A stretch of DNA of 64,000 nt from Takakia lepidozioides (lineage: Eukaryota > Plantae > Bryophyta). The position numbers were made by a program, and so were the translations under genes. Numbering within the stretch: position 1 is the stretch's first letter; the number at the start of each line of letters is the position of its first letter. Positions 31,580 to 59,700 of the stretch are shown here, piece after piece. Location: assembly GCA_030704615.1 (NCBI GenBank), contig CM060733.1, forward strand, positions 25,978,001 to 26,042,000, written 5' to 3'. The notes under the pieces are model-generated. The model ran no database searches. It saw nothing but the letters and a program-made list of their open reading frames with translations, and had not been told where the DNA came from.

Positions 31580-31877
31580 GGGAGATGTGCACACAAGACT
31601 GCCAGGATGGCGTGCGGGAAGCTCCCTGGTAGAAGGGGGATGCAGCGATGGGAAGGAATGCGGTGCCGATTTGTCCAAGCGACGAAGCCTGATCCAAATC
31701 CAGGGAGCCAACTATCTCAAAATCCAGAGTCAGAGTGTTAATGAACCTTGTCTCCGGAATGCGGCCCCTGGTCTTTGCAATATAACTGCCAATGGTATGC
31801 AGTCAGAAAGTGGGGGGCCGTCCGGATGATGACGGCTGAAGGGAGAGAAGCCGGCACCGTGTCGTCACATTACTACC

Positions 31878-33520: not shown

Positions 33521-33529
33521 CGAATTACC

Positions 33530-33984: not shown

Positions 33985-34024
<40 letters not shown>

Positions 34025-35456: not shown

Positions 35457-35509
<53 letters not shown>

Positions 35510-35790
35510 GTCATTTTTCTTGTTTTGGGCCCAGTCAGATCTGGGACTTAGCCATTTTCGGCCCCGAAAATGGCTAAGTCCCTACGATGGCTGGAACCGC
35601 AACTGAAAATTCGACACCATTTTTCCAGTTCCGCTTAGCCATTTTCGGGGCCGAAAATGGCTAAGTCCCTAGGGTGGCTGGCACCAAAATCGGAAATTCG
35701 GCGCCATTTTTCCAGTCATGCAGGTAATTCGAAGAGCGGATGGATGGCGCCGGATTTCCATCCGCCAGGTAGGTCGGCGCGCAAAATTTG
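33530..35790. repeat. Tandem array of long hairpins with poly(A) loops
   Basis: Seven A-tracts (~33625, 33979, 34366, 34542, 34919, 35283, 35457), most flanked by ~50-100-bp inverted arms (...cagatctgggacttagccattttcggccccgaactggaaaaatggcg [An] cgccatttttccagttcggggccgaaaacggctaagtcccagatctg...). Confidence 0.9.
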
Positions 35791-37183: not shown

Positions 37184-40100
37184 CTGTACACACTGAAATC
37201 ATCTAAGAACACCTGCATGAAATCATCCAGATACTCATGGAAAGATTCACTTATCACTCTCTGAAAAGTTGCTGGTGCATTACAAAGTCCAAAATGCATG
37301 ACTTTGTATGCATAAGCACCCCAGTCTGTGATGAAAGTTGTCTTTCCCTGGTCTTCCTCTGCCACTTGCACTTGGTTATACCCACTGAAGCCATCCATGA
37401 ATGAGTACATCTCCATGCCTGCCACAGTGTCCAGTACCGCTTCTGTGAATGGCAAAGGGAAAGGATCTTTCTTTGTACAAGCATTCAACTTCTTGTAGTT
37501 CACACAAACTCTCAGTTTACCATTCTTCTTGGGAACTATCACAATGGGTGACAACCAAGTTGTATACTCTACTATATATAAACTTAGCCTTAGCCAACTT
37601 CTTGATCTCTTCCCCAACCTTCTGTGCATAGTTGGGATTCATTCTGTACCTTGCCTATTTGATTGGTACTGACCCTGATTCTAGTTCAATCTTATGCTGA
37701 CAGATCTCAGGTGGTATCCCTTTCAGATCCTCATAGCTCCAAGCAAATACATCTTTGTATTTGATGAACAGACTCTTAGCTTCCTCAAAGAACTCTGGCT
37801 CCAAGTCAGCCCCTACTTTCACCATTCTTGGTTCCTCCTCAGTTCCCACATTCACTTCTCTTACCTGCTCATCAGCTGTGATTGTCCAACCAGTCTCTAC
37901 TTCATCCTGTAAACTCACAGTAGCTGGTTCTTCTAGGATTTCCATTTCTCCCTCTCTTTCTTCATAGAAATGTGGTGGGTAACTGCTTGTTTCACCCTCA
38001 ATTGGTGTTGCTGTCACTACACCACAACAGATACCTTTTAAACAACTTAGGCCCTCCAGTTGCATTTCTGCAACCTGCTCCCACTCCGGGTGTGCAACGA
38101 ACAGGGTACCTTCTTGCTCCTTATCAAGTCCTCTCCTCCAGTCATACTCTCTGACTCCCCGAGGTCTTCTCGTAGCAGGTAGTCTACTAGATTTCTTTGT
38201 GGTGATTTGTATCTTGTGCTTCCCATCATACACAGTTAGTAACTGGGAATTCCAGTCATGGAATACCCTGGCCTGTTTCAGCCATGGTTGACCCAGCAAT
38301 AATGAGTAAGCTTCCATGACATCATCCATTTTCAACACAGTCATTGTGATCTTAAAGATCATCTTTTGAATTTGTATCTTAACTCTTCTTATCAAACCCA
38401 ATGGCTGAACACTTCTTTGATCTGCCATTGCTACTGTGAATGGGGTTGGTTTCATGTTACTTAAACCAAGCCTCTGCCTTAATTGGTCAGTTATGATATT
38501 CACTCCAGAGCCTCCATCTATCAGTACATCAGTCAAGTCTGTACTTCTAATTCTCAATTGGATTACTGGCATAGAATCATCAAAGTCCATGACTGTTTCG
38601 TGCCCTTCCGGCTTCACAGTATAGCTTGTCACCTTGCTGTTCAGTCTTGTGTTCCCTGTCACATGAGCAATATGATTAATTGCTTGATACAGCCTGTGCC
38701 TACAATGAGGTGCCACAGCCAATAGTTGTCCAATGGTAATCTCCGCTTTGGACTGGCATATTACTTCGCCAAAAGTCCCTTCATTACTCTGCATTTCTGC
38801 AGCTTCTTTCTTCCCTTCATCCTCACTCACTTCCTCTTCTCTTTCAGAATCAGAGGAATCTGCCATAGGAATATCAGTACTCTTCTGCATTTCCCTTATG
38901 GTATCTGTCACTTTCTTGTGCAGTTCCTTCTCATCTCTCCAAGCCTCATCATCTTCAGGCACATCACTGCCATCTTCATTATCATCACCTTCCTCATCTA
39001 CTGGAGGTATTAATTTAGCTTTGTTTTTGGTTACTATCATTGTACTTACTTCTGCTACAACACATGGCCTAACCATGTGAGCTGCCACCACTGGGCCTTC
39101 ATTCACAGGAGCTCTCATCTCATTCTGGTATCTGATCCAGAATGGACAGGCTACCTTACGATGTCCTGCCTGATTACAATAGTAACACAGTTCTTCACCA
39201 TTGGGTCCTCGCCCTTGGTCTGCTCTGGGATTATTTCTGTAATCCTGATTCCCTAGCTGGTAATTCCCCCTTGGATTACTCTGATAGTTGCCTCTGGAAT
39301 TTCCTTGGTAATTCCCTCTTGGATTACCTCTCCCTTCCATACCATTGTTATAACCACCAGGCCTTCCATAGTGGTATTGATCACTGTTTCTTCTTGGCTG
39401 GGGCTGCACTTGATGCACCCTTACTTGCCTAGGTTCTCTCGCAGCTGTCCTTCTGTTGTAATAACAATTCTCAGTAGAATGGTTATCCATTTTACAGATA
39501 GTACAGTGTTTCTCCTTCATGTGGCATTCAGTGGTGGTATGGCCTTCATTCTGGCATTTTGCACAGTAAACACCCTTCCTCCAATGTGTTGCAGCCTCTG
39601 TAGCATACTTCTTCAAGATTTCTTCTAATCTTTTCTCATAGTTATCCCTCTTCAACTTTTCCTTCCTCTTACTCTTCCTCTTGAGCTCTTGCTTTTCTTC
39701 CTCATCTGACTCATCCTCAGAGTCATCATAATCTCTTTTCTCTCTCCTGAGCATTCCCAATTGCTCAATTCTGTTAGTTGTTTCAAATGCCTCCTCCACT
39801 GTATTATGGGGTAGCATATCCACTTTCTTTTGCAACTCTGGTCTTAGTCCACTCACAAACCAGGTCTTTTGTAACCCTGGTGCTGGTACAGCAGCCAATT
39901 TTTTCATCATCAATTCCATCTTTTCCATGTACTCCTCAACAGTTTCATGCTTCTTTTGCTTTAACTGTTGTAAACTTCCATACATTTCATCGTCAGTTTT
40001 ACTTGTCCTGAACCTATTTCGGAATGCTGTATTTAAGCCATTCCAGGTTATGAAATGATTATCAGGGAATCTTGCATACCATTCACTTGCTTTCTTTATA

Positions 40101-41086
40101 AGTGAACAAGGAAACAGTCTCATCTTGGCATCATCGTCATTCTCATTGTTCACAATACACATGTGCTCAAATTGGCTAATGTGTACATCAGGATCCCCTT
40201 TCCCTGAATATATTGGAAAATGTGGTTTTGCCCGTGTTGGTTGTAACGCCATCTGTGGCCCTATCCCCTGCCCACTGACAGGTGCTGGCCCCCTTGCTGG
40301 TGCTGGTCCTTGAGGACCTGTTGTAGTTGTGGTGGAACTTCCACCAAGTGCTGGCCCCTGAGCACTCTCTGCTACTGGCCCCACTATATTCATAGTATTC
40401 CCAGCTCCAGTTGCACTGCTTCCCATACTCCCTGTCCCCCCAGAGCCAGATCCAGGCTGCCGGACAGATCCCCCTGAGCCGACACCTTCGTTGGCCTGTG
40501 ATCCAAGTGCTCCACTTGATCCAGGTCCAACGAGTTGGGATGTCCTGGTTGTAGTCTCAACCTCAGCTGTTGGGTCTACTTCTTCATACTCTTCATCTTC
40601 CAATTTCTTCTCTCTGTTTTCATTTTCCAAGTTCTGCCCTTGGGTTTCTTCTTCTTCACTCATGTAACTCAATTGCAATGGTGTTGGAGAGTCTGAACTC
40701 TCCGTTGGCTCTGCCACATCCTCTCCTCCTTCTTCGTCTTCCGTTTCAGAAACTGGAGTTCCTGCTTTTGGTGTTCCATGCCAACTCTTATCAAAGATTT
40801 CTGTCAAATCTTTTATCCAGGGATGTACCTCAGATCTTTCACCTCGTGGTTGATCTTCTTCTTGTACCAATTCCCTTAATCTTTCTTGCAAAGAATAAAA
40901 AGGAGTGGCATCCAACTCTAGTTCTTCCGGTATGGGTGATGTACTCTCTGGTCTTAATGGTGTGAGAGGTCCAGATGATTCCCCTATGTCTATTCCTCTC
41001 TCCCAAAGATATGGATAATTAGCTTTTAGATAACTTTCTCTTTTTGCTGAATATCTCTGGAGTCTAGCTTCTCTTTCATCACTCAT
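37184..41086 (-). pseudogene. Gypsy gag-protease-RT (N-terminal part), premature TAG at 37655-37657, broken just after the RT LDD motif
   Basis: 1143-aa ORF with gag (YSGKGDPDVHI, QKKHETVEEY), three CCHC knuckles and protease LIDGGSGVN; then RT WLSPIVIVPKKNGKLRVC, MDGFSGYNQV, FGLCNAPATFQR, FLDDFSVYS. Confidence 0.95.
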
Positions 41087-41674
41087 GTCCCATGTCTTTC
41101 ATTTCTTTAATGAGGCAATAACCAAAACTCTCTTCTGTAGTATCTCTCGTATATGCCTGGGTTTCTTTCAAGCTTCAATTCAATCCCTGGCTATACTAGA
41201 AGTCTCTGTTACCATATAACCATATGGCAAACAAGTCCGAAAAGCTGTTCTTGGTGTGAGTTTGATCCACAGAATATCTTTAGGAATCCAATTCTTTACC
41301 AGTATAAGCTCTTCATGCATATGAGTGTAAACATTCACTTTCATTTCCTCCCAGCCTTCAAACTCTACTCGCTTAATGGATAGCAATGCTATCACATAAA
41401 CCAGTGTTGGTAACCAATGTGCTCTTCCTCTACAGGCCACCTAATAAATCTTTATCACTCCTTTCTCCAGACCCCACTAAGGGTCAGCATCATGCACTCT
41501 CTTAAGAATGCTTTCTTTACAACCGTCTGGCAATTCCAAGAACCTCGGAAAGAATTGTTGGACAATCTTTCCTTCTCAGTTCCACATGGAATTTGATTCA
41601 CATCAAATTCTTTAATTCTCCAACCACCATGATCCCACCAGATGCCTGTCACATCTGGTTGTTCATGACTTAGT

Positions 41675-41694: not shown

Positions 41695-42567
41695 TGTCGA
41701 GCGGCTTTTACTCACCCATCCCTTTGCTATCCGAGGTGGAAACTCCAAGATAGAAGAGTTGGATATCTCTAAGCACTCAGCCCGCTCAGAACAATCAGTC
41801 ATGACCTACAGCTAGTGAATCATGGTTGTGCTTCCTATTTGTATTCCTTCTTGCCTTCATGTTATCAATTTACCTTACTGTGTATATTGAAGCATCAGAT
41901 TGCTTCAGTATCTACCAAGTTCCAATTAATCATGCATTCATTCCACAGCTTCTCTCATGTCTCTCTACACAGTATGTTTGTACCGAATAAATATCAGATT
42001 AAGATTAATCAAGTATCAGGCCTATGCCATAGTGTCCCTAATCTACCCTACTGTATGATTCTACAGCTTGCATGAATTAAGCCTCAATCAAGTCATCATC
42101 TCCTCTTCACTGTTCCGCTCTCCGTTTCGTCACCTCCTCCCCTGACCAAGTTGCGCTCCTCCAGAAGTGATCCCCTTCCTGTTGTCGCCCTGCCTAATCT
42201 ACCCGCAAGCTGTTCTAACCACCTAACTAACTAACCGTCACCCTTGAAGTAACACGTTCCCTCTGCAGATGTCGTTCCCACACAGTCATTCCCTGTCAAG
42301 GATAACCGTTCCCCATGTACGCTGTGACAGGCTGTGCCGAGCTATGAATGGCTGTATAAAGCTGTGTCGGGCTGTGACTAGTTGTGCGAAGCTGTGTCGG
42401 GCTGTGTTAGACTGTGACGGGCTGTGACTGGCTGTGCGAAGCTGTGTCGGGCTGTGTCGGGTTGTGACTGGTTGTGCAAAGCTGTGTTTGGCTGTGTCGG
42501 ACTGTGTCTGGCTATGATAGACTGTGACGGGCTGTGACTGGTTGTGCGAAGCTGTGTCGGGCTGTCA
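41695..42567 (-). repeat. LTR (873 bp) with a 10-bp minisatellite at 42325-42566
   Basis: TGACA...CGACA termini on the minus strand, PBS downstream, and a PPT-like AGGGGGGG(T) directly upstream (42569-42576). Confidence 0.8.
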
Positions 42568-44262
42568 ACCCCCCCTAAAGCCTGCGCCCGCCACCCCTAA
42601 GGCTCCTATTGGTCTCAGTCTACCATCCGTAAGTCTGCGCAAAAATTAAGGGTACCCCATAGAACCCGTTAAAGCGTCTAAGTCCCAAGCAGCCCTCTAA
42701 CATGTATTGATGTACACATGGCATCGACTTGGGCTTGATCTCAACACTGCTGCTCTGGTCTTCTAGCTGAAGTGAAGGCTCAGAAGTCTATTATGTCCAT
42801 GAGGAGAGCAAGAATTGAAGTGAAATGATACTTTATGATGTCCGCGGGAAGCTCAAAGAGCTTATGTGACAAAGGAAGCATGAAACAAGAAAGAGATGGT
42901 GCCCACCACAAGCAGCCCGAAGACAACTACTGCTTAAGAGTCAAAGAGTCAAAGCCTCATGCAGATATGCTAAGCATTTCTGATCCTCTTAATGGAACAC
43001 CTCCTTGAGAGAAAGAAACTTTATTACATCGACAAGGGGGCTGAGGGCCCATTACTAAGAGAGAAAGAGGACTTATCAGTGCCGAGAAAGAGAAATGAAA
43101 TTAAATGAAATGGTGCTTTATAACGTCCGCGGAAAGCTCATAGAGCTTATGAGAGAGGTACATATCTGAACCCAAAAATTTGTCCTCGTCATATGATGAA
43201 ATGGCAGGAAACAAGACCAGATGTGGAAGGGGTTGGAAAACATGCAAAGAGCCCTACAGACAAACTTGGGGACTGGTCCAGAGGTTGGCCTGGCGGTGAG
43301 ACTGCTCTCATTGGCTGGGTGAGTTTAGTGAAAACGTTGGACTCCGTTTCCAAGCAGGAGGCAACTTGTCGAAGTCTTAGGGAACTGTGATTAGCAGATT
43401 GGCGAGGCCTTTCTTATTGTTGTACATGTTGTATCAGTACACTGACGCAAAGCCAATGTGCAATCATCATGACAAAGCTTAGAAACTAAAAAGAAGAGGG
43501 AAGCATCTAACAATTTGAAAGTAATTGGCTGTCTATACTTGCATTGAGTCTGTGTTGCAGGTTCTCCCCCTCTCCTTCTTTCTCCCTCACTAACTAAGAG
43601 ACATGCATTCAAAATCTCAAAATATGAAAGGAGGATTAAGGAACATTGAAGCTGCTTCAATACAAGTGCATCATGCCAAACCTTCATTTCGCCGCCTGGG
43701 ATCCCTAGGGGATCTTGTGGGAATCAAAGTCGCAGAGAAGCGGCGGACGCCAGGGAGATGAATTGAGATAGGCTTAGCTTGAAGGCTAGGGTTCAGTCCA
43801 TGGAAACTACGGTCAGGGTCCCTACTAAAAATTTCTCCCTTAGACCTTTGTAAGGACGATCTGCACCTGTACATTATTTGATCCTATGAGGCAGCCCACC
43901 ATCGTGAAGAAATTTGGGGCCAAGTCTGATGAGAGGTCAAAACAGGCTGAAATAGGTCGAAGAAGAAGGTGCCCTCACCACATTGTCCTCGACCTTGTGT
44001 CATGATCCATGGAGGATTTGACTGACCTTGAACCCAAGAGGACCTCTTGTGTCTGCAGCTTGTGTCTGTAGTCAGGTAATGTCGGATTGCTCTGTGAGAA
44101 CCACCACAGTGTAGCTGAGTGGGCGTCGATTGAAACACGGACTGCTAAGACCAAACTGACTCTCCCAAGAACCTTGTAAACATCAGGAAGAATACCAAAT
44201 CATGGTACTAACAGGAGCCAAGAGCCCACATTTGCGGTTGCGGTGCAGGTTGCGTTTTGCCC

Positions 44263-44778
44263 TGTCGTGCGCATTAAATGCTACACAACTACATCGTTGT
44301 CCAAACCACACCACACATATATGCACAATAAAGTAGTCTGCCACAATGATAAGAAACCCAAAGAACACACTGTTGACACAAAACATGAAAACCAAAACCA
44401 TCACTCTTTGAAATAGTAGTCGAGCCAGGGGCACCCCAAGCTATGGGGACTCCACCCCACAATAACCTACACTCCCATCATGAGTACACTAAGATCTAAA
44501 CGCATGCAGGAGCTCGGTCGCGCAGGCTCAACTCGAAGATGAGCCGCGCGACTGCCGCTCTCGTGAAGATAAGACGGACCAGGTGTCAAACTAAACTTGA
44601 CACCTGATTTAACACTTGACCTAAATCCAAGTGTTAAATACAAATAACTAGTTTTATTCTAGCTGTTTCACACTGTGCTTATTTAACTTGACAGCTGTCG
44701 TGCGCATACATATCGCTACACACCATCGCTGTCCAAACCACACCACACATATATGCACAATAAAGTAGTCTGCCACAA
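44263..44778 (-). repeat. 3' terminal repeat block B2 (44263-44346), A2 (44347-44693), GC, B1 (44696-44778)
   Basis: The B copies share tgtcgtgcgcat...tgtccaaaccacaccacacatatatgcacaataaagtagtctgccacaa. The palindrome GACAGCTGTC lies at 44690-44699. Confidence 0.92.
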
Positions 44779-44788
44779 TCGCCCCCCT
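44779..44788 (-). promoter_or_regulatory. Polypurine tract before repeat B1
   Basis: AGGGGGGCGA on the minus strand, immediately 5' of TTGTGGCAG (start of B1). Confidence 0.7.
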
Positions 44789-45037
44789 AGCTGGTGGATA
44801 GGTCCCTCTACCTCCAGATAGCTACAAGATGTAATAGCCACAGCCGTACTAAGTCCTCTATCACTGTCCCTATTGTACTCAAACTCTATAGACCAAGAGG
44901 CCGGGTACAAGAGTAGCCCCATCGTTAGTCGCCGTCTTGCAATCTGTGAACTTGAGCCAGGATCTCGTGTGTTCAAGGTCTCCTAGTAGCTGGGCCTTGC
45001 GTTTCTTGTTAGCCTTCCATGGTTGTATCCACTCCCA

Positions 45038-46320
45038 CTATCCAATGCAATGTGGACATAACCAATCCCCATCTGGAACCATCTCAAGAGGTGGAGTCAA
45101 GCATCCCATATGCCAACCTCTAGAGCATCGATCACACACCAGCATGGTGGCTGCCCCTTTAGCAGACCCACACAACATGCACCTCAAACCTGCAGATACC
45201 ACTGCCAGGTTTGGGTCAATCCTGCCATCGACATTCGGAAGGTGACATGGCGCACAATTACGCACATGGTCCTTCCAAGTTATGCCATCCCGACCCTCCA
45301 AGACCAAGACGCCTGAGGGCAAGACCTCTCGAACCCTCAAAATAACACGTCCTGCAGTCACATCCAGGGTCGTAGGAGCAGTCTGCTGCAGATAGACATA
45401 GTCACCAGGGTTGAATCTCCGAACCCCAGGACGATAGCCCCCACCACGTATGGTAGCATACCTCAACGTATCACGGTGTTGTGCAATGGCAAGGTTCTCG
45501 AAAGCCATGGGCATGACTCTCTTGAACAACTCTGCACGCTGCTCACATGCACGTGCCCACACGTCCGGATCGTCAAGGTTAAGAACTGTAGCAGCTTCTC
45601 TGCGAATGGATGTAGGCAAATCCGGCTCTCGGCCAAAGAGAAGAAAGTATGGTGAGAAGGAGGCAAGTGATGCTTGCTTGCTGAACCTGTAGCCCATGGC
45701 TAACCAGGGTAACTGAAGGTCCCAATCTCCTAGGTGTCCCTTCTGCAAGCCATACTTGCGCAAACCCCTCTTTACTGTCTGAACAACTCTCTCTGCCAAG
45801 CCATCGGCTTCAGGATGATCCCGAGAAGTGGTGCGGTGGTCTATCAAGGCCTTGTCACACAAAGCCTGAAACTCCCCCAAGAACTCTCTCCCTTGGTCCG
45901 TGAGTACCTCAGCTGGAGCACCGAATCGGCTAAGCACACAATCCAGGAATGCATACGCAGCTCCCTCACTAGCCTTATCAGGCAATGGAACCAATTCAAT
46001 CCACTTGGAGAAGTGCTCCACCATCACCAACACGTACTTGTTGTGCGCATGGTCAGTGGCAACGGCCCTGCGAAGTCAAGACTCCACCTGTAGCCCAATC
46101 CCATGATCGGAAGAGGGTGCAATTGTGGAGTAGGGGCGTTGAATGAAGCACGCACCCTGTCACACACCATGCACCTAGCCACAAATTGTTGCACCTCTGT
46201 GTGCATACCACGCCACCAATACTGCCCCTGCAGTAGACTATGAGTGCGTCGCACCCCAAATGCCCCAACTCCTCATGGGCATGCCGCACTAACCGTGCCC
46301 GCTGTGTTTGGGTGAGGCAC
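45038..46320 (-). pseudogene. DDE integrase with C-terminal PHD finger (frameshifted N-terminal part)
   Basis: HEELGH..CMVCDR, WSLDFAGPLP, EHFSKW, VLTDQGREF, HPEADGLAER; C4HC3 PHD CMLC..LVCDRCSRGWHMGCLTPPL..VPDGDWLCPHC. Confidence 0.92.
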
Positions 46321-46689
46321 AATCCTCACTCGACCATCCTCCCACACTCGGAGCAGGTGTGTCCCCTCCCACTTGAACCTCTTGGCTCGTTGTAGGATCC
46401 GATCCCTCTCCTTGGCAGTCACAGTGGCTGCCGTGTCTCCAGTGCGGAGGTAGTCCAACACAACTGAATCCTCATGTATATCTTTGGCGCCACCTTGCTC
46501 ATTGCTGGCCTCAGGGTCCTCAGACACTTGATCTACAGTCATCCCTGTTGCAGGTCCAACCTGGCCTTCCGCTGCCAAGATACACAAAATGCAGATGCAT
46601 GCCATCCGGGCACCATCTCCTCGTCCGTCTCACCATGCCACCGAGAGCTCCAGTGTCATCCTGCTGGCTCGTGCATGGATTGCGACTCA

Positions 46690-48003
46690 ACCCATCTGCA
46701 TTGCGATTGACCAAACCCGGTCGATGCACCACCTGAAAGTCATACTCTTGAAGGATGAGTGCCCACCGTGCAAGCTTCCCCGTAAGCTTGTCTGACTCCA
46801 TCAACCACTTGAGTGGTTGGTGATCCGTGACAAGGGTGAAGAGATTGCCGTATAGATAGCACCTGAAGTGTGCCACGGCCCACACTGCAGCTAAGCATTC
46901 TCCCTCATATGAGCTATACTTAGACTCTGCAGCATTGTTCGAGCGGCTAGCATAAGCCACTACGAACTCTCTTCCCTCATCATCCACCTGTGTGAGCACC
47001 GCTCCAAGCCCCAGCATGCTCCAATCTGTATGCTGAAAAGGACGCCCCCTGATAGGTCGTCTCAAGATGGGCGCCGAGGTCAACCTCGCCTTGAGCTCTT
47101 GAAAAGCTTGTTCTTGCTCATCTTCCCACTGCCACTCCTGGTCCACCTTGGTCAGCTTGGTTAGAGCCTTTGCAATGGCACTAAATCCCTTAACAAACCG
47201 TCTGTAATAGTTTGCTAACCCCATGAAAGCTCGAACTCGGCTCACATCGTGGGGCGTGGAACCTGTGCAATGGACTCTACCTTAGTCTGCTGTACCCCCC
47301 TCCAGGATATATCATGTGACCCAGATACTCAATCTGGTTGTGGAAAAACTTGCACTTGCCCGGATGTAACTTCAATCCGTGCGTCCTCAAGCGCTCAAAT
47401 ACCCCCTGAAGGTGTCTCTCATGCTCCTCCACCGTAGCACTAAAGAGATGATGTCATCTATGTAGCACCGAGCAAACTCCACCCCTGCTAGAATCCTGTC
47501 CATGACTCTTTGAAACTCAGCGGGAGCGTTTTTAAGCCCAAATGGTAAGAACCGCCACTGGTATAGGCAATCCTTCCCGTGCTCATTGATCCCCCAGAAT
47601 GCCGTCTTTTGCTTATCCGCCTCCTTGATCGGCAACTGGTGATATCCGGATCGTAAATCCAACGTGCTAAAGACCTTGGAATGCCCAATGGCATCAAAGA
47701 TCTCCTCTGGTGTTGGCATGGCATACCTATCGGACTTGGTCTGACGATTTACAGGCCGGTAATCACCGCACATACGTCTCTCCGTCCAATTGCCATAGAC
47801 ATCCTTCTTGCTGGCATCACTGTGGCTGAAGCATACTCTCCACCAGAGAGCTCCACCAAACCTGCCTCCCAGAGATCTTGAGTCCTCATCTGAATCAAAG
47901 ACCTCTCCATGTCACTGTATCTATAGGGTCTCCGAAAGATTGGCGTGTCAGTGGCCAACTCAATACGGATCTCTTGACCCTTCAGTGCTCCCAAGTCCTT
48001 CAA
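46690..48003 (-). pseudogene. Reverse transcriptase and RNase H (frameshifted)
   Basis: CGDYRPVN, LDLRSGYHQ, PFGLKNAP, YIDD; TDWSMLGLGAVL, YASRSNNAAESKYSSYEGECLA, TDHQPL, NADGLSR. Confidence 0.93.
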
Positions 48004-48469
48004 ACTGAAGGCAAAGCAATTCCTGTAAGCCCTCAGGAACCGCCGTATACGTCGTCTCTCTCCTCCGGTGACAATGGGTCCAATGTCAGGCTCCCAATTG
48101 TCCTCCGTAACTGCAACCTTAAGTCCAGTGGGCTTAGAGGTAGAGGACGCGTCCCGTGGTTGCTATGCTGCAACCTCTTGAGCAGTACTTCCCTTCCTGC
48201 TCAGTCAATGACAAGGCCTCATCCTGCCCCATCATCTCATCATTGAGAACCTCCTCATCCCGAGAAGAATCCCCAACCTCATCCATCACAGCTGCTTGGC
48301 TGCCAACTCCCTCTGAACCTCGAGCACCTCCCACGTGTGCCATGGATGTCTACACCCCGTGGTCCTCACCGGCTCGCCCCCACTCGCTGCCTGTACCGTC
48401 TCGGTAGGCAGAGAGACCGTCAAGGAAGTGCACTCCGCACTCTACGTTGCTCAGCCATAGCCAAGCTGA

Positions 48470-49403
48470 TAATCCAGGTCAAGCAATTGAGATCCATTGC
48501 TTGCCCCAACACCTGACGACGTGATGCCTCAGAAAGAGAAGGCACCCGTGGTCCAGTGGAAAACCCATAGCCCGCTCTCGCTCGTCGGCATTAGGCTCCA
48601 CTAACTGCTGCAACTGAGCATCCCACAGGAGGCCAGGTCCACCATCCCGAAAAGCATGGGATCCTGGGAAGCTGAGCAGTGTAGGTAATGCTGCTCGTGG
48701 TTGACCCACCCTGTTGACCACTGCCAAAGGCGAACGGTCATCGTGTCTCACACGTTGAGACTGCCTCCCTGTGTCCAAAATGCCATCCACGGTGAGGTGT
48801 GCTGGCCGCTGCACCCCATCAAATGCACGCTTGAGCAGTGCGGGTGGCATCAAGTTAGTCCACCATAGCCGTGGACGATGAGCCCGTGACCCCACTGCAG
48901 CTGCATCCAGCAACACTGCTGACCCAAGCCACGACCGGACTTGATGCACACTGGCCATCACCCTGGCCCGAGAATCACCCATCAGTGGCACATTCTCCAA
49001 GATGTATGCTGGAGATACAGCTTGATGAAGCTGCAAGTGGCGCAAAATCCGCACCATCTCCCAAAACAGACCCGTCCTCGAGTCTCGCAATCCATTGCCA
49101 TGCCCGGCTGATGAATGCCCTTGGCAGGGCCAACCTGCCACTACCAGATCAATGGAGCCAACCTGCTCCAAATCTTGCGCCCCCAACAACGAAATGTCTG
49201 CTGGCAAGGCTTGTTGGTATCCACGAACTGCAGACACTGGCAACAACAGGGTACTGCTGTACCAACTGAGCAACATGGCGCAGTGAGACGCGTCGTGCAG
49301 TCTCATCCCTCTCCACATACAGGTAACGCCTTACCCGCACACCTGCCTGTAGCACAGCAGCCAATCCGTGCTGATCCCGCCAAACAAGTCCAGAAGGCAA
49401 ATG
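48470..49403 (-). pseudogene. C5 cytosine DNA methyltransferase domain (DNMT3-like) inside the retrotransposon polyprotein
   Basis: Motif I LLDLFGGI; II YLYVE; III ADI; IV VAGWPCQG (catalytic PC); VI ILENV; VIII RAHRPRLWWTN; IX ERERAMGFP; X RRQVLGQAMD. Only small frameshifts. Confidence 0.93.
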
Positions 49404-49849
49404 CCTTCATCCGGCCTGCCACACAAGAGGTGTGGTGTCCAATGGCGACAACTGAGGTGGCCTGGTGCAATCACCGCACTCTCCTCCTCTCCTGACGGTA
49501 CAAAAGCCTCTACCCAGGCTTGTTGCACCCGTCGATCAGCAGCTGCAAATCCTTGCTCGTACCCCACGGAGTGTGAGCAACCATGGCAGGCAACTCCGCC
49601 GTACCATGCATGTCATCCTGCTCTGCTGGAGGTGGCACATCCTCTGCATGGGCATTGCCTTCCAGCAACTCTCCAGGCCAACTAACTGCAGCTGTAAAGG
49701 CGGCTAGTGTTGGCATCTTGCCCCGCTGGGCAGCCGCAATACCCCCAATGAATGTCACAGGGAGCTGTGCACGGCGACCATCCCCTGACTGCCATCCAGG
49801 CCTGTAGGATGCTGACTCCTCCCAAAATCCAGGGTGAAGCCCATGGGGT

Positions 49850-52300
49850 AAACACTGCCCCACCAACGAGGACATCGTAAGAGACCGCGTCTGTCACAAT
49901 GGCCTTGGCTCGCATCACTGAGCCATCTAGGATGATCCGGCTGCAGTCTAATGGCCAACTGATGTGTGTCATGCCCCGAGCCTGCTCTGATCCTCCCAGA
50001 GATGTCTGTATCTGGAAAGGACAAGGCTCCATATCCGCCTCCATGAGGCCCAAACCTGCAATAGCAGCTCTGCCCAACATCAGTGGCTGAGCTCCCGAGT
50101 CCAACAAGACCCGCAGTGGCCGGTACTTCTTGCCTGCCGGTCCACTCAAAGTGAAAATGCCTCCCTGGTTGTCTAACAAGACAACTCCAGGTGTCACCAT
50201 GGCGCGCTCAAAGGCTGGCCTAGCTGGCAGCTCCGTCAACCTGGCAGCTGCAGCTTGCCAGGGCGCAGCCGTGGCAGTCTTGACCCTCAAATCCGAGGAT
50301 CCCTCTGCCACTACACCTTCCACTAACTCCGCAGAAGATGAAGTGACCTCCCCACTCTCACAGAGTGTTGCTGCTAGTCTGAACACTGCAGCTGGTCTCA
50401 CCCCCGGCGTCGCAATCATGTTGCCGAGAACAGTGGGCTTGACACACAGAGGTGGCTGCCCCCAATAACACACCGGCTGCACTAGCCTTGGTAGCAGGTG
50501 TCAGTGCTGCACGTGTAGCTCTCCCCAATGGCATAGTACCTCCGCCTCGGTAACAGTCGGGCGAGAACTAGGTGCCATGGATGGCGTTGACACTGTCTCC
50601 GCCAATGTGAATGACTGAGGAAGCCTTGCCTGACGGCTTGCCTCCCCACGCTGTGGATCCAATTCCACCTCTGCACCTCGTGGCTCAGGAACTCGTGCTG
50701 CTCCTCGAGTCACGGCTGCAGCAGACTCCACCTGCTCTAGTGGTAGTGCTGCTCCCGCACATGAATCCCATGCCTCCCATATCTCCTCCCTCAGGAGCAG
50801 GAGGTGGACCATCCCGCCTGGGAGCCGGTACCGCCGAGCTGTAGCCATGGCAGCGAGCCTCTGCTCTAGCTGCTGAAGCCGATTGGCCATGCCTTGGTCA
50901 ACACCCTGACCTCCGCGTCCTTGGCCATGTTGGAGCTTGCCCTTGGCCTGCACCTCGTGCCCGACCACCTCGTCCTCTTTGGGCTGGTCCACCTCGCCCC
51001 CGGCCACCATTGTTCCCTTGGAACTGGCCTGGGCGCAACTCAGGATGCAAGTCATAACACTGGGCATCTCCATGCCCATACTTGCCACAATGCCCACACT
51101 GCAACTGTGGCAGGCTGTGCTTGTGCCGGCCTTCTGCCACTCTCTGGGCATCTCTCTTGACATGGGGTCCTCCACATGTCCAACATATCACCCCTGGTTG
51201 CTGTTGGCCTGCAAAAGATGCCACGGGCCTCTGCACCTGAGGTCCCCTGTAAGCTCCATGGAACTTGGGCTGGGCAACCTTGCCCCCCTGACCACGCTGT
51301 TGGGCAGTCCCTTGTGCCTGTGGGCTGACAGCTGTGCCCCGTGCAGGCATGTCCTTGCCAAATCCAAATGTAACAACTCGCTCCTCCACCATGTTGAGCT
51401 CAATCCGCTCAGCCAGCAGAAACACATCTGCTAATGTGGGTTGGGCTGCTTGTAACACAGGGTTGCATCTCGCACCCTTCTCTTGAGCTCCTTGTCCAGA
51501 ATTCCATACCAAACTGGATTGCCTGAGCTTCAGTAACCCCTTGGGTCACACTTATCAAGCGCCTCATACGAGTGTACGCTCTCGCAGGCTCTCACTGGGT
51601 TGCGCTGGAAGTCTTGCAAACTTCGCAGCTTCTCTGTCCGTACACCTTGGTAGTTCCTCCGCAACTCCTGGAAGAACTCCACCACCGGGTTGAATCTAGG
51701 CACATGTGTTGTAGTCGTGCAGGAGGAGTAGTAGCACCTTTTGAACTGGTACCACCTGCAGAAGTACCAGCACTACTTGCTCCAACTAGTGCTGGCCAGT
51801 GGGAGCTATTGGTACTGATGAAGTAATGGTCACGTGCGGGCTGGCTGTTGCCTGTGAGTAATGTGAGTCGTTAGTCTGTTTAGGGGGTGACCAATAAATC
51901 CTCCACTCCTCAATCTCTGCTTCATGTCCTCGCCTGAACTCGTGGTAATCGTCCATAGGCGGGCCTTCCAAATGCTGGAACAGTCCCTTCCATGCCATGA
52001 ATGGGGTGAATAACTGTGGATTGCGCATCTGCTGCAAATCACACCAGCTGTCGAAACTCCTGGATAAAGTCTCCAACTCAATTGTGCCCCAGCTCCAGAG
52101 TACCTACGAGGCCCCTGGTAGCTCCATACATCGACTCCATGTCGTCCCACAACAATGGCGTTGAAAGTGCACACCTGTTGATGAAGGCCTCCGAGTCTGT
52201 GTCTGACTCTACAGTAATTGAGGGTGGCGGTTGAAGGTGGTTGAACCGAATACCTCGTCTTGTGAACCCACTCTCACTGTTACTGCCTGTAGCCGTACCC
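49850..52300 (-). pseudogene. Gag (zinc knuckles) and aspartic protease (frameshifted; start approximate)
   Basis: CWTCGGPH and CGHCGKYGHGDAQC knuckles, RGRGG-rich linker, protease VLLDSGAQP...YDVLVG. Confidence 0.85.
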
Positions 52301-53106: not shown

Positions 53107-53622
53107 TCAAAAGCTTGAGATGGTTGCGGGTGTCCTCATTGCGAATGATTGCATCTCCTTCAAACAGAACAAACTTGTCCTCGGTAATGAACCCCCGCTC
53201 GTGGTTGCCTTGTGCAAAGCGTGTCCGGCTGCAACGCTGTCTGATTGCACAAACTTGTGTAGCTCCTGCTCCTCTACTCTAGTACACCACGCCTTGTGGC
53301 TGAACACCTTGGTCCCGGGGGCTGTATTTGGCTGTGTTCCAAGCCTAGCTTTCACCCACTTTGGTATTTCACCTACAGCTGCAGAACTGCTGGCTCCAAC
53401 AGAGTTCTGACTGTCCAAGGCGATATTGAGGCCCTCAATGCCAACTACAGCAGTCTGTTGTCTACTGCTAATGCCTGACTCCCAGTATGCAATCAACTCG
53501 TCCAACTGTTCTCCACTCAAATCAGTCTGAGTTCCTTGGGAAACATAAATCTTGTCCCCTTGTGTGCACAGGGTAAGAGAAAAGACCTGCCCTTCAATTA
53601 CGTCCTCATTTCCCCCAGCCAT
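53107..53622 (-). CDS. Uncharacterised 171-aa ORF in the 5' region of the DNMT retrotransposon
   Basis: Uninterrupted ATG-initiated ORF in the element's sense orientation; no recognised motif. Confidence 0.35.
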   Translation of the reverse strand: MAGGNEDVIEGQVFSLTLCTQGDKIYVSQGTQTDLSGEQLDELIAYWESGISSRQQTAVVGIEGLNIALDSQNSVGASSSAAVGEIPKWVKARLGTQPNTAPGTKVFSHKAWCTRVEEQELHKFVQSDSVAAGHALHKATTSGGSLPRTSLFCLKEMQSFAMRTPATISSF

Positions 53623-54019
53623 ACAAGGAGTACATCCACAGTTTGTCTCTCATATAGACCAGCACAGGGTTCTAGAAACATGATTGTGGATCTTTCGTGG
53701 CACACTCACACTCTAAAAATTCCATAGATTTTTAGCAGAGTCCCCAAAATAGAAAGTTTAGATAGGTAGATTTCCCCTTTCTGCAGCTATCCCCCCAAAA
53801 ACTGAGTCAAACAGAGTCCATTTGACAAAGATATGACCAATTGGCTCTAAAATCATTAAATTAGATCAAAAGACCAAATAAATACAAAAAAACCTCTTTT
53901 TAAAAAAAAAAAAATACTTGTCTTGGTTCCCTGTTCCCTGGTTATCTACGGGTTCCCAAACATGTTCATGTAGTTCTCACAGTCTGGATTCACACCTCCT
54001 CTCGTTCTGTGCTCTTATG

Positions 54020-54530
54020 CTGTGGCAGTGCGTGGGATGTGAAGGTCGGTGATGCGGGTCTTGGCCTTTCTGTCAAGGAGAACGTGAGAAGGCTTCAGAT
54101 TAGTACACCCTGTGCTCCGGGCACTCAGGATGCAGGTACGCCAACGCGCGTTTGTTACACCGATGGCAACGTTGAGTCGATCCCTTCAGCTCATATCTCG
54201 CTCATACACCAAGTGTCACCTGGTGAGTTCACTGTCTCCCACTCTCATGCTTTCCTGCAACAAACACGACCTTGAGGTTCAATCCTCCAAAACTTGAGGA
54301 TCGCCAGCCTGGGAGGTTGACACTGTCAGAAAGCGCCCCTCCCTTCCAGCAAATGGCCTAAGATCTGGTGACCTCGTCAATAATCCCCTGGACTGCTCTT
54401 GCTTGGTCTTTCTCACAGCTGCCTGCACCTGTCACTGTGTTTTTTGCCTGACATTTGACTACCCTCCCAAGAATGTAGAAGTCCTAAGATTCTCCGTCTG
54501 CCGCTGAAGCACTGCGGCAGTCAGGCTTTG
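54020..54530 (-). pseudogene. Degenerate RLK/Pelle kinase fragment inside the element
   Basis: Pieces read across frameshifts: LQRQTENL..FLG, AVRK, DEV, LVYE, S*RDRLNVAIGV, ALAYLHPEC, NLKPSHVLLD..RITD (kinase subdomains I-VII). Confidence 0.65.
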
Positions 54531-55843
54531 CCCTGGTGTCACCTTCACCTCCCCACCTTTCTTCATGGCTTCAATCACCTCTTTAAACTGCTCGTAGTTA
54601 TGGACAGTCCCAACAGGCTGAATGTGGTTAGTAATGGGGGTGTTTTCGGGGGTAGTGTGATGCTCAGGTCTCGCTTTGGGGAGCCTTGACTACTGATCGG
54701 GTTGCTGGTGCGGTCGTGACGGAATTCGCCTGGGAGGTGGACGTGGGCTGACCGTTGCATGTGGCTGTCGAAGAAAAGGAATTGGTCCGTGAGAAGCCTT
54801 CGAAGAAGCCGGTCTTACTTGCTGCACCAATACAAGTATTGCCCATTTAATGTCATTTCTCTTCCATCTCTCCCCACCTTAGCTCCCGGAAGAATTGTCC
54901 CCCAGTCTGTATGTCTTCTCTCCTTCTGTGCGTTAGCTACACGGTTTTTTTTTTTACGTACGGGGAAAGCAACCAACTGCACACTGCAGACTCTTTAAGA
55001 GAGAACAGACTAACAGGCGAAAAACTCAAGCCCGTGACGTTCTTCCTAGAGAAGCGACCCTGCCACCCATTCGCCAACACCAGGTCTTCTGCAAAGTAGC
55101 ATAAGGACGGACACTAGATGCCACAACAACTGTACTCAGCACTGGGCATGAGTTCCGCCTTCAACAACACGGAGACTCTTATTTCTCCAGCGTACTCCGA
55201 TACCATCGCTCCGACATCCACAGCCACTGCCTTTGCGCAGTCAAACACGGAAATTTCCCTCTACAAAACCCGCTCATCAGTGCATCTTCTCACGCTTCCC
55301 CGTCGTACACACGCCCCGGTCACACAAGAGAGGCTTCGCATGAGCTTCCTCCCGTCCGCCATCTCACTTGCGTGGTATGAACAAGACAACTGGCGCTGGC
55401 TAGTCTACAGTCTATTTCCTAAGTAGACACTGCTCATCCACACATGCCTGCTCGGGCACACCCTGCAAGACTTCAGAGCGAATCCCCTTGCGCAACAGTT
55501 CGGGATTTGACTAACACGTCGGTGCAGCAACAGCCGCCTGGCACCTTCAGTTATCAGAGGATTGCGTCGTCTCCATGCGCGCAGGCTGAAGTGTGAAGAA
55601 GCTTGAAAGTGGCAGGCAGCCATGGCCGAGCTGCTGCCGTGCTTCAACCACTCTACCTATACCCCCCGAGTCCCACCATTGCGACTGAGGATGTGAGACG
55701 AACTCCAGCTAGCGCCGTTCTATGCTCATTGCTTGAGCTGTGTACAAGACCATGACCATCTATATTATAATAGTGCTTAAAAAAACAAAAACATCATATC
55801 TAGCTTAGCACTGGAAAACTAGATAGAGCTCATCTCTCTCGAG

Positions 55844-56194
55844 TGATAAGAAAACCAAAGAACACACTGTTGACACAAAACATGAAAACCAAAACCATCA
55901 CTCTTTGAAATAGTAGTCGAGCCAGGGGCACCCCAAGCTATGGGGACTCCACCCCACAACAACCTACACTCCCATCATGAGTACACTAAGATCTAAACGC
56001 ATGCAGGAGCTCGGTCGCGCAGGCTCAACTCGAGAGAGATGAGCTGCGCGACTGCCGCTCTCGTGAAGATAAGACGGACCAAGTGTCAAACTAAACTTGA
56101 CACCTGATTTAACATTTGACCTAAATCCAAGTGTTAAATACAAATAACTAGTTTTATTCTAGCTGTTTTCTCACTGTGCTTATTTAACTTGACA
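55844..56194 (-). repeat. 5' repeat A1 (351 bp)
   Basis: Near-identical (roughly 7-8 differences) to 44347-44693; repeat B is absent here. Confidence 0.95.
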
Positions 56195-56268
56195 GCCCCT
56201 TCCTGCATCATTTGCTCTGCAAAGCCTCCACCCCACGCCTCTGCATATCCTTTGATCATCGCGTTCCA
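56195..56268 (-). pseudogene. Degenerate PPR-motif fragment, the insertion target of the DNMT element (continues at 44258 and below)
   Basis: WNAMIKGYA...EQMMQEG|AKRN reads through when the element and one GCCC copy are removed (compare WNAMIxGYA...QMQQEGVKPN). Confidence 0.5.
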
Positions 56269-56725
56269 TCTCTCATCTCTCGGCTCGATACTACTAAGAA
56301 AACGCTCAGGGAAAAAAAAAAAAAAACAAAAAAGAGGCCAAGTCCCAGCCCTCTAATTGGCAACCCTATAAGCAACTTTTTAATTTCTTAAACCTTTTGG
56401 TTACCAAGCTTGCACTAGAAGTCATTCCGGCGACTATTTGGTGGCAAGCTCGCGTTGGTCAACCACCCTTCCGTCTAGTGCGGAGCCATACAGTCATGAC
56501 GACGTCTACCAAAGTAGTCGCCCAGAGGACGACGTAGTCATTTCAACGACTACGTGAAGCCCCATTTGGTCCAAAAATACAGGGAAGTTTTGAAACTTTA
56601 GACCAAAATAAGCTTTTATCAAGCAATTCCAAAACAAAATTAGAGTGTGGTATGTGGAATTCTAACTTCCAAGCGTATTTGACTGTAGTGTGATATGTTT
56701 TAATAATTGTAATGTTCCCCATACG

Positions 56726-59700
56726 TCAAGTAAATCTATTCATATCACAATTTTCTTGTCGCCACCCAATCCGCTGAAGGTCGTTATCGAATACTATCAA
56801 GTGATCCTTCATCGCTAGAGCTATAACATCCCCAACATTTATACCTTTTAGTCCAACAATGTACCTCAATTTGAATTAATCAACCATGAACATCACATCT
56901 TTAATACCAAATGTCATATATTGTACATGTATATAGAAAACAATAATCAGATTGTACGTTTAATTTGGTAATTTTTAGTTTGATTTAATTAAACATCAAT
57001 TTCTATAACATATGTCCATGCAAGTCTATAATATTGATATTATATATGCGTACCACCAATGAGGCCAAAGCTTGTAAGATGGGGATGAGTCTGAATGTCT
57101 AAGCATAAATTTGCTTTATTTTCCCCTTCAAAAAACTACATTCACATTGTTGTATATTAATTTGTGAAGTGGTATGAAAGAAATGACAAACTATTTTGGT
57201 TTATCATCATACATATAACACCTAACTAGTAACTCGACAATCATTTGTTTTCAGCAGTATGAGTTTAATAATTGTTCATATCTATACCATAATAATAAAA
57301 AATTAAATATTTAATCATAATTTGCATCTTTAGTTAATAATTTTATACTTGATGCAGCTCATGCTATCTATATTTTAATATTTATTTCTTACGGTTTGAC
57401 ATAAAAATTTACGTACAGAACATTATATTCATTATAGAAGGAAAAATTAGAACTTACTTCCCAGCTCATATAGTTTTCAGGAAGAATCTCATACGTTGAA
57501 AATCTGTAATTCTGGTCATCTTCTTGTTGTGAACTTTCTTCAAACTCAAAAATCAAAGACTGAAATCTTTTTCTCAAATCAAAATTGGATGGATTACTAT
57601 TCATTCCCAAATCAAGTGAAATATAGTTAGTATTGGATACGTATTCTTAACCACTACCACCAGAACAAAAAAAAGAGTCGGCTATCATATTATGTACCTA
57701 AAAAGAGAAATCAAAATCAAATAAACATGACACATCAAGTAGATAGTCTCACATCGTAATAAAATTATCTTGAAAGTCATCGGGACTTTGGGCCCACTTT
57801 GGACCTCTACTTGGTGTTTCATCCCAGTTGGAGTGAAAACTGAAAGTAAGCAAAACTAGGAACCAGTAAGCTAAAACTCGTGCCACTAGATCTGATTCTC
57901 TGATAGCATAAGAAGCAGGGAGGGTAGCTTGGCAAAAGTAGAATCAGGGTGAAACTGCCTTGAAAGTTAACCCCCAGTTTTGGTGAAAAAATGAGTTTCA
58001 TATCCCAGTTGTTTTTTCCCTTTGTAATGATTTAGTCTTCCCCAATTTTGCAACTCGTCTCCAATTTTTGGGGGTACCCATTCCCAGTTTGTGGACTTTA
58101 CCGATAATTTTAATGTAAGAGAAAGTGTTATTTTTAACAGAGTGTGATTTATCTTAACACAGAATTTGCAATTCTGATGTTCAACAAATATGTTGTTATT
58201 ATATACACCAGTTGGTAGTAACGTTGGATTGTTCAATAAGTATCGTCCAAATGTCAAAACATATTACTAGTTGCATGTGCTATTATCTTCTCTACCTTAT
58301 CTTGGGCAGTATCCTATGAGCCATCTGCGCTTCATGGCGAGATTGCTTGAAAAATGTCATTTTCCCCTCTTAATATAATCAAGAGGCTTGATTATTTTCT
58401 TTTGAAAATGAGAAGAAAAAAGATTATGACCAAAATAAATGTATCGACTGTGCTTAAATAATATCAAACCAATATTAACAATTAATTTTATATTTATTTG
58501 TGATAATATGATATCAATATATGAATCGAGACATTTGTTTTGTTTGTTTGTTTTGTAGATTTGAGATGTCCCCAACCGTGAGGCCCCAGCCCTGGTGCTT
58601 AGTACCGTTGGAAAGCCCTCGATGAGGAGGGGTGCACGGGCTTGGTCTCATGATTTTTGGACCTGCGGTGTGGGAGATGTGGAATTTCAAGTACTTGGGG
58701 TCGTTGGAAATTCGAGAAAATTTAGCAAAGTGGGCTCTCCTGGGACAATGGTTGGAGCCTCGACGGGAGATATCATTAATGATTTGATGTATTACTACTC
58801 AAAAAAATAGCAAATTGGGCTTTTTTGGGACAATGATTGGATTACTCAATAAATTCATGGAAAACAATAAATCGAAGAGGAGATATGGAATTTCAAGTAG
58901 TTTTGGTTGCTGGAAATTCACAAAAAATAGCAAAGTGGGCTTTCCTGGGACAATGATTGGAGCCTCGACAGGAGAGATATCAAGGAAAAGGTCTCCAGTT
59001 CAAATCAGGTCGTAGGTTCTGTTAAAAATGATTAGACTTAGATGACTTAGATGACATTGGACACTTGGGCCAACGGCACAGGCTACCCTAGTAATATAGT
59101 ATAAAATATTTGTGGTTGAGGTCGAAGCCATATGTATGTGTTGAGTGTCACCCATTATAACCAACCCAACACGGGCACACACGTATATATATCATTGCAT
59201 AAACCGGTCACCTAATGTGTATTATAACTTGGGGGATTTTGAGTCATTGGGCCTGAAGGTTTGGGTACTCTTATTGCCTTGTCACAACCAATGTTGGTCG
59301 GTTATCATTTTTTTCAAAGCTCACGAGGTTCAGGTTATACAAGTTGACTCACGCAGTAATAACCTTTGGTTCTAGGTGAAATATGCACATTGAATGAAGG
59401 TTATTTGCAGGTTATGGTTATGAAAATTTGAACAATATGTGTGGTCAGGTTATTTGCCGATTCATAAGCAAATCATAACCTGGGGTGATATTTCAAGTCG
59501 GGTCTTTGTTGTAACCGAAATATAACCTACCTACCATCAGATATAATTGAAGTACTCTAGGCAGGCTGCAGAACCTATCGCTCAGGTTCAATGTGCCGTT
59601 TCAACTTCAATGTACATAATGAAAATAGGACACCAAAAGAAAACTACAATTTGCCGCGAAACCCTAGCTACTATAATCGCTTCCGTCCACTTACAAGATA

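Follow-up and report, generated by a model that had tools for sequence, protein, structure and literature searches.

A high-copy gypsy-type retrotransposon carrying a DNMT3-like cytosine methyltransferase between protease and reverse transcriptase

Retrotransposons that bear a DNA methyltransferase have so far been described in dinoflagellates and in a single charophyte. The closest described system, KnitGypsy-Dnmt3 of Klebsormidium nitens, shares with the element analysed here its gypsy domains, an intronless DNMT3-related polyprotein domain, purifying selection and DIRS-like repeats, and is called an acquisition of the K. nitens lineage in the available portion of its description (PMC5890265). 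That portion also covers SymbioDIRS-Dnmt3, in which a DNMT3-type domain again occurs with A-coding-B-A-B repeats, and whose DNMT3 domains carry out de novo CG methylation when tested in yeast; SymbioDIRS, however, has a tyrosine recombinase, whereas our element encodes a DDE integrase and is flanked by target duplications of 4 bp. The Tf1/Sushi and Tcn1 elements, according to the accessible part of PMC6317226, have in common with our element the absence of a tRNA site, occurrence in non-seed plants and predicted self-priming, the last also for the Tcn1 elements of mosses. Those elements are chromoviruses, whereas here a PHD finger and a methyltransferase are present and a chromodomain has no match at E 0.1. 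Chlamydomonas Gypsy-7a_cRei, likewise a gypsy element of the green lineage, also has a PHD finger within its polyprotein, but its LTRs are ordinary, and a methyltransferase is absent from the domain list given in the available part of its source (10.1101/2022.06.16.496473).

The DNA analysed here is a stretch of 64,000 nucleotides, referred to throughout as the window. Its element resembles KnitGypsy-Dnmt3 in having a DNMT3-related domain upstream of the reverse transcriptase (RT) and repeats in the order A-coding-B-A-B. In contrast to KnitGypsy-Dnmt3, its close relatives are found in liverworts and mosses, with a sister arrangement RT-RNase H-DNMT-integrase in Haematococcus and Scenedesmus, and an in-frame stop parts DNMT from RT. 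The methyltransferase is thereby set apart from the Pol open frame, which makes the element a related variant. Self-priming, a junction palindrome and a PHD finger go unmentioned in the available text of PMC5890265, where 'PHD' has no matches, and 'Marchantia' has none in that text and three supplementary files, figures apart; the accessible part of PMC12344493 gives just 'streptophytes and dinoflagellates'. Across titles and the starts of abstracts, with subscription journals and Repbase outside the scope, we found no land-plant report of such elements and no gypsy element with such a stop or junction. The kind of element is known, and that this is a variant with a wider range is well supported; its stop, its probable self-priming and its permuted ends, none of them noted in the earlier sequence-only reading, are three features that we did not find described.

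The element and its methyltransferase domain

The gypsy-type element spans 56194-44263 (11.9 kb) on the minus strand, as do its features below unless noted. It starts with TGTC, ends with GACA and is flanked by duplications of GGGC, the 5′ copy (56195-56198) recurring as the same four bases after the 3′ end (44259-44262). Its order of protease, RT, RNase H and DDE integrase, its TG...CA ends, short target duplication and purine tract are those of Ty3/gypsy elements, but in place of two complete identical terminal LTRs the 5′ end consists of repeat A alone and the 3′ end of B-A-B. Promoter, R and U5 would lie in repeat A1 (55844-56194, 351 bp, TGTC...TCA). The leader holds a low-copy insertion of about 1.9 kb (53901-55826, ends approximate, strand not assigned), bridged by a contig from 53842 to 55832; lying after the primer site, it has no similarity elsewhere in the window or the loci. 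The high-copy part of the leader also contains a 180-codon open frame (53107-53649) of no known family, having no Pfam match and no counterpart in 80 metagenome loci. Gag (51036-52123, CCHC knuckle at 51098-51057) is frameshifted and was located by tblastn with the Marchantia proteins P0002 and P0004. It is followed by an aspartic protease (49844-50230, LLDSGA at 50107-50090) whose Pfam match is weak here (E 0.07) and significant in relatives, by the DNMT3-like C5 cytosine methyltransferase (48450-49420), by a frameshifted RT with RNase H (46646-48096, YIDD at 47464-47453; Pfam and tblastn) and by a DDE integrase with an HHCC zinc finger (45300-46272; Pfam). The C-terminus of the integrase carries a PHD finger (45047-45184; PF00628, E 8e-11), whose best solved matches are CHD4, PHF12, KDM5A/B and ATXR5.

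In one run, 90,746 contigs map to a 12.8-kb stretch. Their summed depth, which is not a copy number, is the same over methyltransferase, RT and integrase and about three orders of magnitude above that over the private 1.9-kb insertion. The element is high-copy, with tens of thousands of contigs, and the window copy is decayed. The rest of the window holds further repeats and genes. A second gypsy element without a methyltransferase (36883-41098, minus strand) has an open Gag-protease frame of 1147 codons and a CpG observed/expected (o/e) ratio of 0.16; a Harbinger-like DDE_Tnp_4 transposase lies in two frames at 18823-20219 (minus strand); dense GC-rich palindromic repeats, with many direct and inverted copies, alternate with poly-A tracts at 31800-35750; and tandem repeats with a 10-bp period (25395-25592 and 42321-42590) adjoin two other gypsy elements. 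Downstream of a gypsy integrase, an open frame of 310 codons without a Pfam match (28555-29487, plus strand) is possibly an extra frame of the adjoining gypsy element, and a multi-exon TAXi_N aspartic protease gene (about 56700-63240, minus strand) adjoins the 5′ end of our element. One sequencing run, perhaps of RNA but possibly of DNA, covers parts of the region and so counts neither for nor against expression. In transposon frames of the window, CG and CCG are scarcer than expected and CWG is enriched (o/e 1.5-1.8 in gypsy frames), and CWG is depleted (0.6) in the Sphagnum-type copies L034 and L079; these base patterns hint that the window host may have little CWG methylation.

A sequence-only reading of the window had listed C5-methyltransferase motifs I, IV with the catalytic PC, VI, VIII, IX and X in pol orientation between protease and RT, and all were confirmed on the minus strand. 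The motifs are in canonical, unpermuted order: I (LDLFGG, 49393-49376), II (YVE, 49319-49311), IV (GWPCQG with the catalytic PC, 49135-49118), VI (ENV, 48997-48989), VIII (HRPR, RxR, 48880-48869), IX (ERERAMG, 48583-48563) and X (LGQAMD, 48509-48492). The PF00145 search suggested by the same reading bore this out, with an E-value of 9e-14 and a score of 52 bits where the cut-off is 22. The window motifs are split over two frames, with frame changes near 49367, 49246 and 48550, and because of these three changes no enzyme can be made from the window copy. At the same three places, length differences or loose ends also occur in contigs from the same organism and from two others, which suggests that the breaks are due to decay or misassembly of the window copy and are not the state of the family. 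Open frames are present in relatives, L083 having two around one stop and L001 an open DNMT domain. The catalytic Cys is present in the window and is called in 78 of the 81 rows formed by the window together with the 80 loci (Trp in one, two uncalled), a count biased by the loci having been found with a pattern containing PC.

The family affinity of the domain, which had been put forward for comparison with DNMT3, DRM and charophyte enzymes, came out as DNMT3-like by both profile and fold. A profile of 68 diverse sequences ranks DNMT3A first (2e-27), followed by DNMT3B/C (2e-24), DRM (1e-14), M.HhaI (1e-9) and DNMT2 (1e-6). For the predicted structure of the open L001 domain (pLDDT 96.3), the best fold matches are DNMT3B and DNMT3A (Z 30.0-29.8; rmsd 2.4-2.5 over 271-272 residues), with 4dkj (Z 25.6) and M.HhaI (Z 24.3) lower. 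With the profile, DNMT3 proteins reach 78-99 bits and two phage methyltransferases 72-75, and in the atlas comparison phage clusters draw level; the best phage matches are about 30% identical. Animal and moss DNMT3 (PDB 6kda and 6f57; PpDNMT3b, available part of PMC6453930) are the best profile and fold matches and share the unpermuted motifs, but the element domain is only 23-26% identical to them and is without a PWWP, ADD or other accessory domain. No targeting domain fused to DNMT was found in the relatives' proteins or the L001 domain; one relative, P0073, has a G-patch domain after DNMT. By profile and predicted fold, the domain can safely be called DNMT3-related, descent from a host DNMT3 gene being a separate claim.

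Protein searches returned 86 longer and 219 near-length relatives, with taxa named from 120 listed. Among the matches listed, Marchantia polymorpha proteins are up to 73% identical over the whole query and 75% over about half of it, Calypogeia fissa reaches 72% and Sphagnum troendelagicum 70%, M. paleacea, Riccia sorocarpa and S. fallax are also named, and the liverwort and moss relatives together span 70-76% identity to the window domain. Haematococcus lacustris stands at 37% in the same matches, and a DNMT-RT-RNase H-integrase protein of K. nitens at 46%, which upholds the proposed kinship to charophyte transposon enzymes. No vascular plant is named among the matches listed, most of those rows carrying no name. 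The idea of a land-plant, probably bryophyte, member holds as far as its nearest named relatives, which are liverwort and moss proteins; a bryophyte host is likely, and both the multi-exon aspartic protease gene beside the element and the position in the tree are compatible with one. A search made with an aspartic-protease exon to identify the host gave no result.

From a metagenome scan, 80 of 132 loci were kept, each fetched through its DNMT domain. They are mostly Sphagnum-like, with many near-duplicates of one moss family and about four independent lineages, so that counts over loci are not counts of independent cases; along 141 residues, one of them (L007) has the same sequence as an S. 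fallax protein (100% identity). The window has 203 blastn matches to the 80 loci, all inside the element, with a best identity of 69-76%, and this DNA similarity speaks against Sphagnum as the host. Wherever neighbours are covered, protease lies upstream and RT downstream of DNMT; the exceptions are a small number of loci with nesting or deletions, for example L023, L026 and L068. The domain is thus a family trait, and the even depth and constant spacing from protease and RT across loci led us to reject a host retrogene and the one-off insertion that the sequence-only reading had named as a refutation.

The methyltransferase domain is under purifying selection. Between lineages its dN/dS is 0.06-0.20, with dS near saturation, and that of RT is 0.04-0.09; among Sphagnum-type copies both reach 0.4-1.1, as expected from decay after insertion. 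Over the 68 sequences the most conserved columns are catalytic and cofactor residues (C101, E144, R184 and R186). Together with the low dN/dS and the far lower scores of DNMT2-type proteins, this weighs against the notion that the domain persists as a mere passenger or for a role that is non-catalytic or RNA-directed, for example binding of nucleic acid inside the particle. That notion could draw on the missing CpG depletion signal (see below) and on the Klebsormidium enzyme, which had no activity in yeast, a result deemed inconclusive by its authors (PMC5890265, available text), and we consider it highly improbable. The enzyme is likely to be catalytically active.

A quick DNMT tree was built from 73 rows, namely 65 stored proteins picked for coverage and names, five loci, the window and two phage outgroups. 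The window falls within an 18-row clade (SH-aLRT 99), alongside liverwort and moss sequences, and a second clade of 27 rows (SH-aLRT 98), including Haematococcus and a Scenedesmus-named protein, has DNMT between RNase H and integrase. P0062, P0082, P0115 and relatives represent this large clade, and RT stands before DNMT in 55 of 370 proteins. RT and DNMT trees agree (Mantel rho 0.56, none of 999 permutations, 34 shared rows). Klebsormidium P0061 lies outside the starred clades of the window in both quick trees and has starred support as sister to neither group; deep nodes of these trees are unstarred and DNMT-free sisters unsampled. The simplest reading, from trees without DNMT-free sisters, is that the green lineage captured the domain once, long ago, and that its position within the element changed later. 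A prokaryotic or viral origin was rejected: two scans of viral contigs gave no relatives, and the sole locus in prokaryote genomes, L083, is a whole retrotransposon that we read as a stray eukaryotic contig. L083 (1-9285) comes from a cyanobacterial metagenome-assembled genome and has a 127-bp end overlap; its DNMT is about 50% identical to that of L001.

The stop codon between methyltransferase and reverse transcriptase

Many loci carry all domains in a single frame with one common stop, so that the frame reads Gag-protease-DNMT-TAG-CAA-YYN-RT-RNase H-integrase-PHD. In four lineages an in-frame stop with this TMV-type context splits Gag-protease-DNMT from RT-RNase H-integrase-PHD. The sequence-only reading had treated the methyltransferase as a part of pol; its place between protease and RT stands, but it ends the Gag-protease frame and is followed by the conserved stop. 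In the window the stop is TAG followed by CAA CCA (48157-48165, the TAG itself at 48165-48163), a CAR-YYA readthrough context, and L001 has the same TAG CAA CCA. Among 49 rows anchored on RT, out of the 80 loci and the window, a homologous stop followed by CARYYN is present in 43 (27 TAG, 16 TAA); the other six comprise one double stop, one Tyr codon and four rows interrupted by other sequence. Elsewhere, in-frame stops have this context in only 2 of 176 cases. The full CARYYA occurs in 3 of the 43 rows (the window, L001 and L032) and CAACCC in 38, most Sphagnum-type copies matching CAR-YYA at five of six bases.

L083 has two open frames, one with 1162 codons and the other with 1047, parted solely by TAG-CAA-TCA. 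Proteins from Marchantia (P0002, P0004 and P0013) and Calypogeia (P0005) have their C-terminus 124-126 residues past motif IX, as does a protein with the Sphagnum-type pre-stop sequence, and 18 stored proteins share the pre-stop C-terminus of L083. Other public gene models (P0006, P0011 and P0012 of Marchantia, P0070 of Sphagnum) join DNMT to RT or integrase and omit the junction; they probably reflect introns predicted over the stop, the 'genes' being transposon frames. Three folds of the RNA 3′ of the stop, run without a shuffle control, have no shared pattern.

The available parts of PMC2194720 and PMC2754532 describe CAR-YYA as sufficient for readthrough in TMV and plant viruses, and an in-frame UAG followed by CAR-YY(A) is common to our element and to type I (TMV) readthrough, MuLV, SIRE1 and Tca2. 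The position differs, as the stop here comes after protease and an enzyme domain and not where gag meets pol, or pol meets env, in MuLV, SIRE1 and Tca2. Judged by its context and conservation, the stop is probably leaky, with readthrough taking place. Against readthrough, the full CARYYA is confined to 3 of the 43 rows, and the Sphagnum-type copies have an in-frame ATG next after CAACCC, which could permit re-initiation instead; the ATG is not conserved in the window, L001 or L083. If the stop is leaky, most ribosomes would halt after DNMT and a minority would read through, and since DNMT would be made with every Gag, far more DNMT than RT and integrase would result. In several more distant relatives, including Klebsormidium P0061, a single protein holds both DNMT and RT, and dosage at the level of Gag is therefore not needed throughout the group.

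Split repeats, priming and integration

The repeats of the window copy are ordered A1, internal part, purine tract, B1, GC, A2, B2. The purine tract AGCTAGGGGGGCGA (44779-44792) is kept in 11 loci and L083, and B1 (44696-44778, 83 bp, ending ...CACGACA) begins directly 3′ of it. At the palindromic B1/A2 junction GACA-GC-TGTC (44690-44699, strand not assigned), a right end, a 2-bp spacer and a left end meet. A2 (44347-44693) differs from A1 by six substitutions and six gap columns and is abutted, without an extra base, by B2 (44263-44346), with which the element ends in ...GACA. The same A-internal-B-A-B order was found in L034, L049 and L079, and its 3′ portion in L012. Exact target duplications of 4 bp flank the element in the window and the copies L049, L079 and L015, while those of L034 and L032 each contain a single mismatch. 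All five A2/B2 joins are precise, and the junction palindrome GACAGCTGTC is an identical 10-mer in the window, L012, L049, L007 and L083. Split direct repeats, as used to recognise PAT, Ngaro and VIPER, are thus present, while in the frames scanned a tyrosine recombinase is absent and rve and HHCC were found.

No tRNA-type primer site, with its TGG, follows A1 in the window. Instead, the bases immediately 3′ of A1 (the primer-binding position, 55827-55843) are the exact complement of a 17-nt segment within A1 (56029-56045), a match met in none of 300 shuffles. A different complement of 16 nt at the same A position is present in L046, L049 and L068, and a third, of 12 nt, in L083 (none of 1000 shuffles); the remaining decayed loci have 5-11 complementary nucleotides, the pairing being eroded in L034 and L079. 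By sequence complementarity, a predicted self-priming site takes the place of the tRNA site, as in Tcn1 and Tf1. Three covarying complementary sequences at one A position indicate self-priming of the Tf1 type, which we hold to be very likely. The 17-nt segment would then be the 5′ end of the transcript, which would fold back onto the site after A and prime the minus strand as in Tf1, with the purine tract priming the plus strand at B.

Because A ends at the minus-strand primer and B begins at the purine tract, the reverse-transcribed LTR would be B+A. In that case the A2/B2 join would be an end-to-end join of linear cDNA, and the palindrome would be two integrase ends with a shared 2-bp spacer. 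Linear cDNA would close into a 2-LTR circle, the DDE integrase would make a 2-nt staggered cut at GACA-GC-TGTC in the upstream LTR, and insertion with a 4-bp duplication would leave the observed A-internal-B-A-B order. Cutting at a palindromic 2-LTR junction has a precedent in foamy virus integrase (PMC1180852, available part). Among 11 loci with the purine tract, four run on into A2 and seven stop after B1; the latter (L008, L014, L015, L023, L027, L032 and L038), with A-internal-B and without A2-B2, fit 1-LTR circles, recombination or assembly collapse. None of 16 5′ A copies is preceded by B, and a symmetric 2-LTR circle alone does not account for such upstream-only opening. Taken together, the repeat structure leans slightly towards integration via circles.

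Two other accounts bear on this layout. For the A1...B1-A2-B2 order of tyrosine-recombinase elements there is an annealing-based model of reverse transcription (available part of PMC6681497), on which another origin of the split repeats could draw. We regard it as improbable here, since the A2/B2 join coincides exactly with the two priming boundaries, primer site and purine tract, and since 7 of the 11 loci have the A-internal-B form expected from an opened 1-LTR circle, although recombination or assembly collapse could also produce it. The strict asymmetry of the layout could alternatively mean that the methyltransferase gates integration, methylating in or near GACAGCTGTC, which contains CAG/CTG, and so shielding one of two identical junctions. 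In some bacterial transposons the ends are under such control by methylation. The 10-bp palindrome is kept from the window to L083, and methyltransferases recur with DIRS-type repeats in SymbioDIRS-Dnmt3 and KnitGypsy-Dnmt3 (PMC5890265, available text). The junction is equally explicable as an integrase site, however, an end-to-end template jump of RT could yield the asymmetry without methylation, and Ngaro- and VIPER-like elements share the repeat order, with no methyltransferase given for VIPER in the accessible part of PMC6681497. Gating thus appears a remote prospect, on a par with the annealing account.

What the methyltransferase may act on

In the reading that we slightly prefer over its alternatives as a whole, DNMT is made ahead of a leaky stop, packaged at a Gag-like level and methylates the element's own cDNA before integration. 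Such an enzyme would act on extrachromosomal DNA, giving it a host-like look or letting it enter partly silenced, and the related enzymes suggest CG as a prior for its target context. That cDNA is the main substrate is, taken by itself, also marginally favoured. CpG depletion as a sign of self-methylation was not seen: the CpG o/e ratio is 0.50 in the element and 0.78 in L083, against 0.16 in DNMT-free gypsy neighbours. Being less CpG-depleted than its neighbours, the element runs contrary to heavy CG self-methylation and deamination; SymbioDIRS-Dnmt3, whose enzyme is active, is likewise without CG loss (PMC5890265, available text).

The lack of extra CpG loss would also suit a methyltransferase that acts on chromatin, at the target site or on other copies, and thereby limits copy number or, with the PHD finger, shapes insertion. 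It could be carried there by the pre-integration complex or be freed from abundant Gag-protease-DNMT. The PHD finger of the integrase is nearest to chromatin readers (CHD4, PHF12, KDM5 and ATXR5), and a high dosage set by the stop suits a role in trans. On the other hand, the DNMT is without a fused targeting domain, and in the chlorophyte-type clade it follows RNase H and precedes integrase, where its dosage is that of Pol. Gag-fused proteins are expected to end up in the particle, which also speaks against action on chromatin, and we judge this alternative unlikely.

Packaging with action on cDNA therefore stays our working reading. A broader picture, in which an ancient green-lineage clade of retrotransposons with DDE integrase, abundant to this day in liverworts and mosses, has self-primed 2-LTR circles opened at the LTR palindrome, DNMT at the level of Gag, methylation that it writes on itself and possibly a choice of junction made by it, is put forward tentatively, as rather unlikely in its entirety.

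The occurrence of the family in Marchantia and Sphagnum makes the question of what such enzymes do testable in a genetic model with methylation mutants, and the conserved stop is a dosage clue towards a particle-level job. The putative self-priming site and permuted ends suggest a circle route, an uncommon one for DDE integrases if true. Among the gene models of Marchantia and Sphagnum, several that carry the label 'hypothetical' or DNA methyltransferase are transposon frames, and land-plant methylomes may include a mobile writer.
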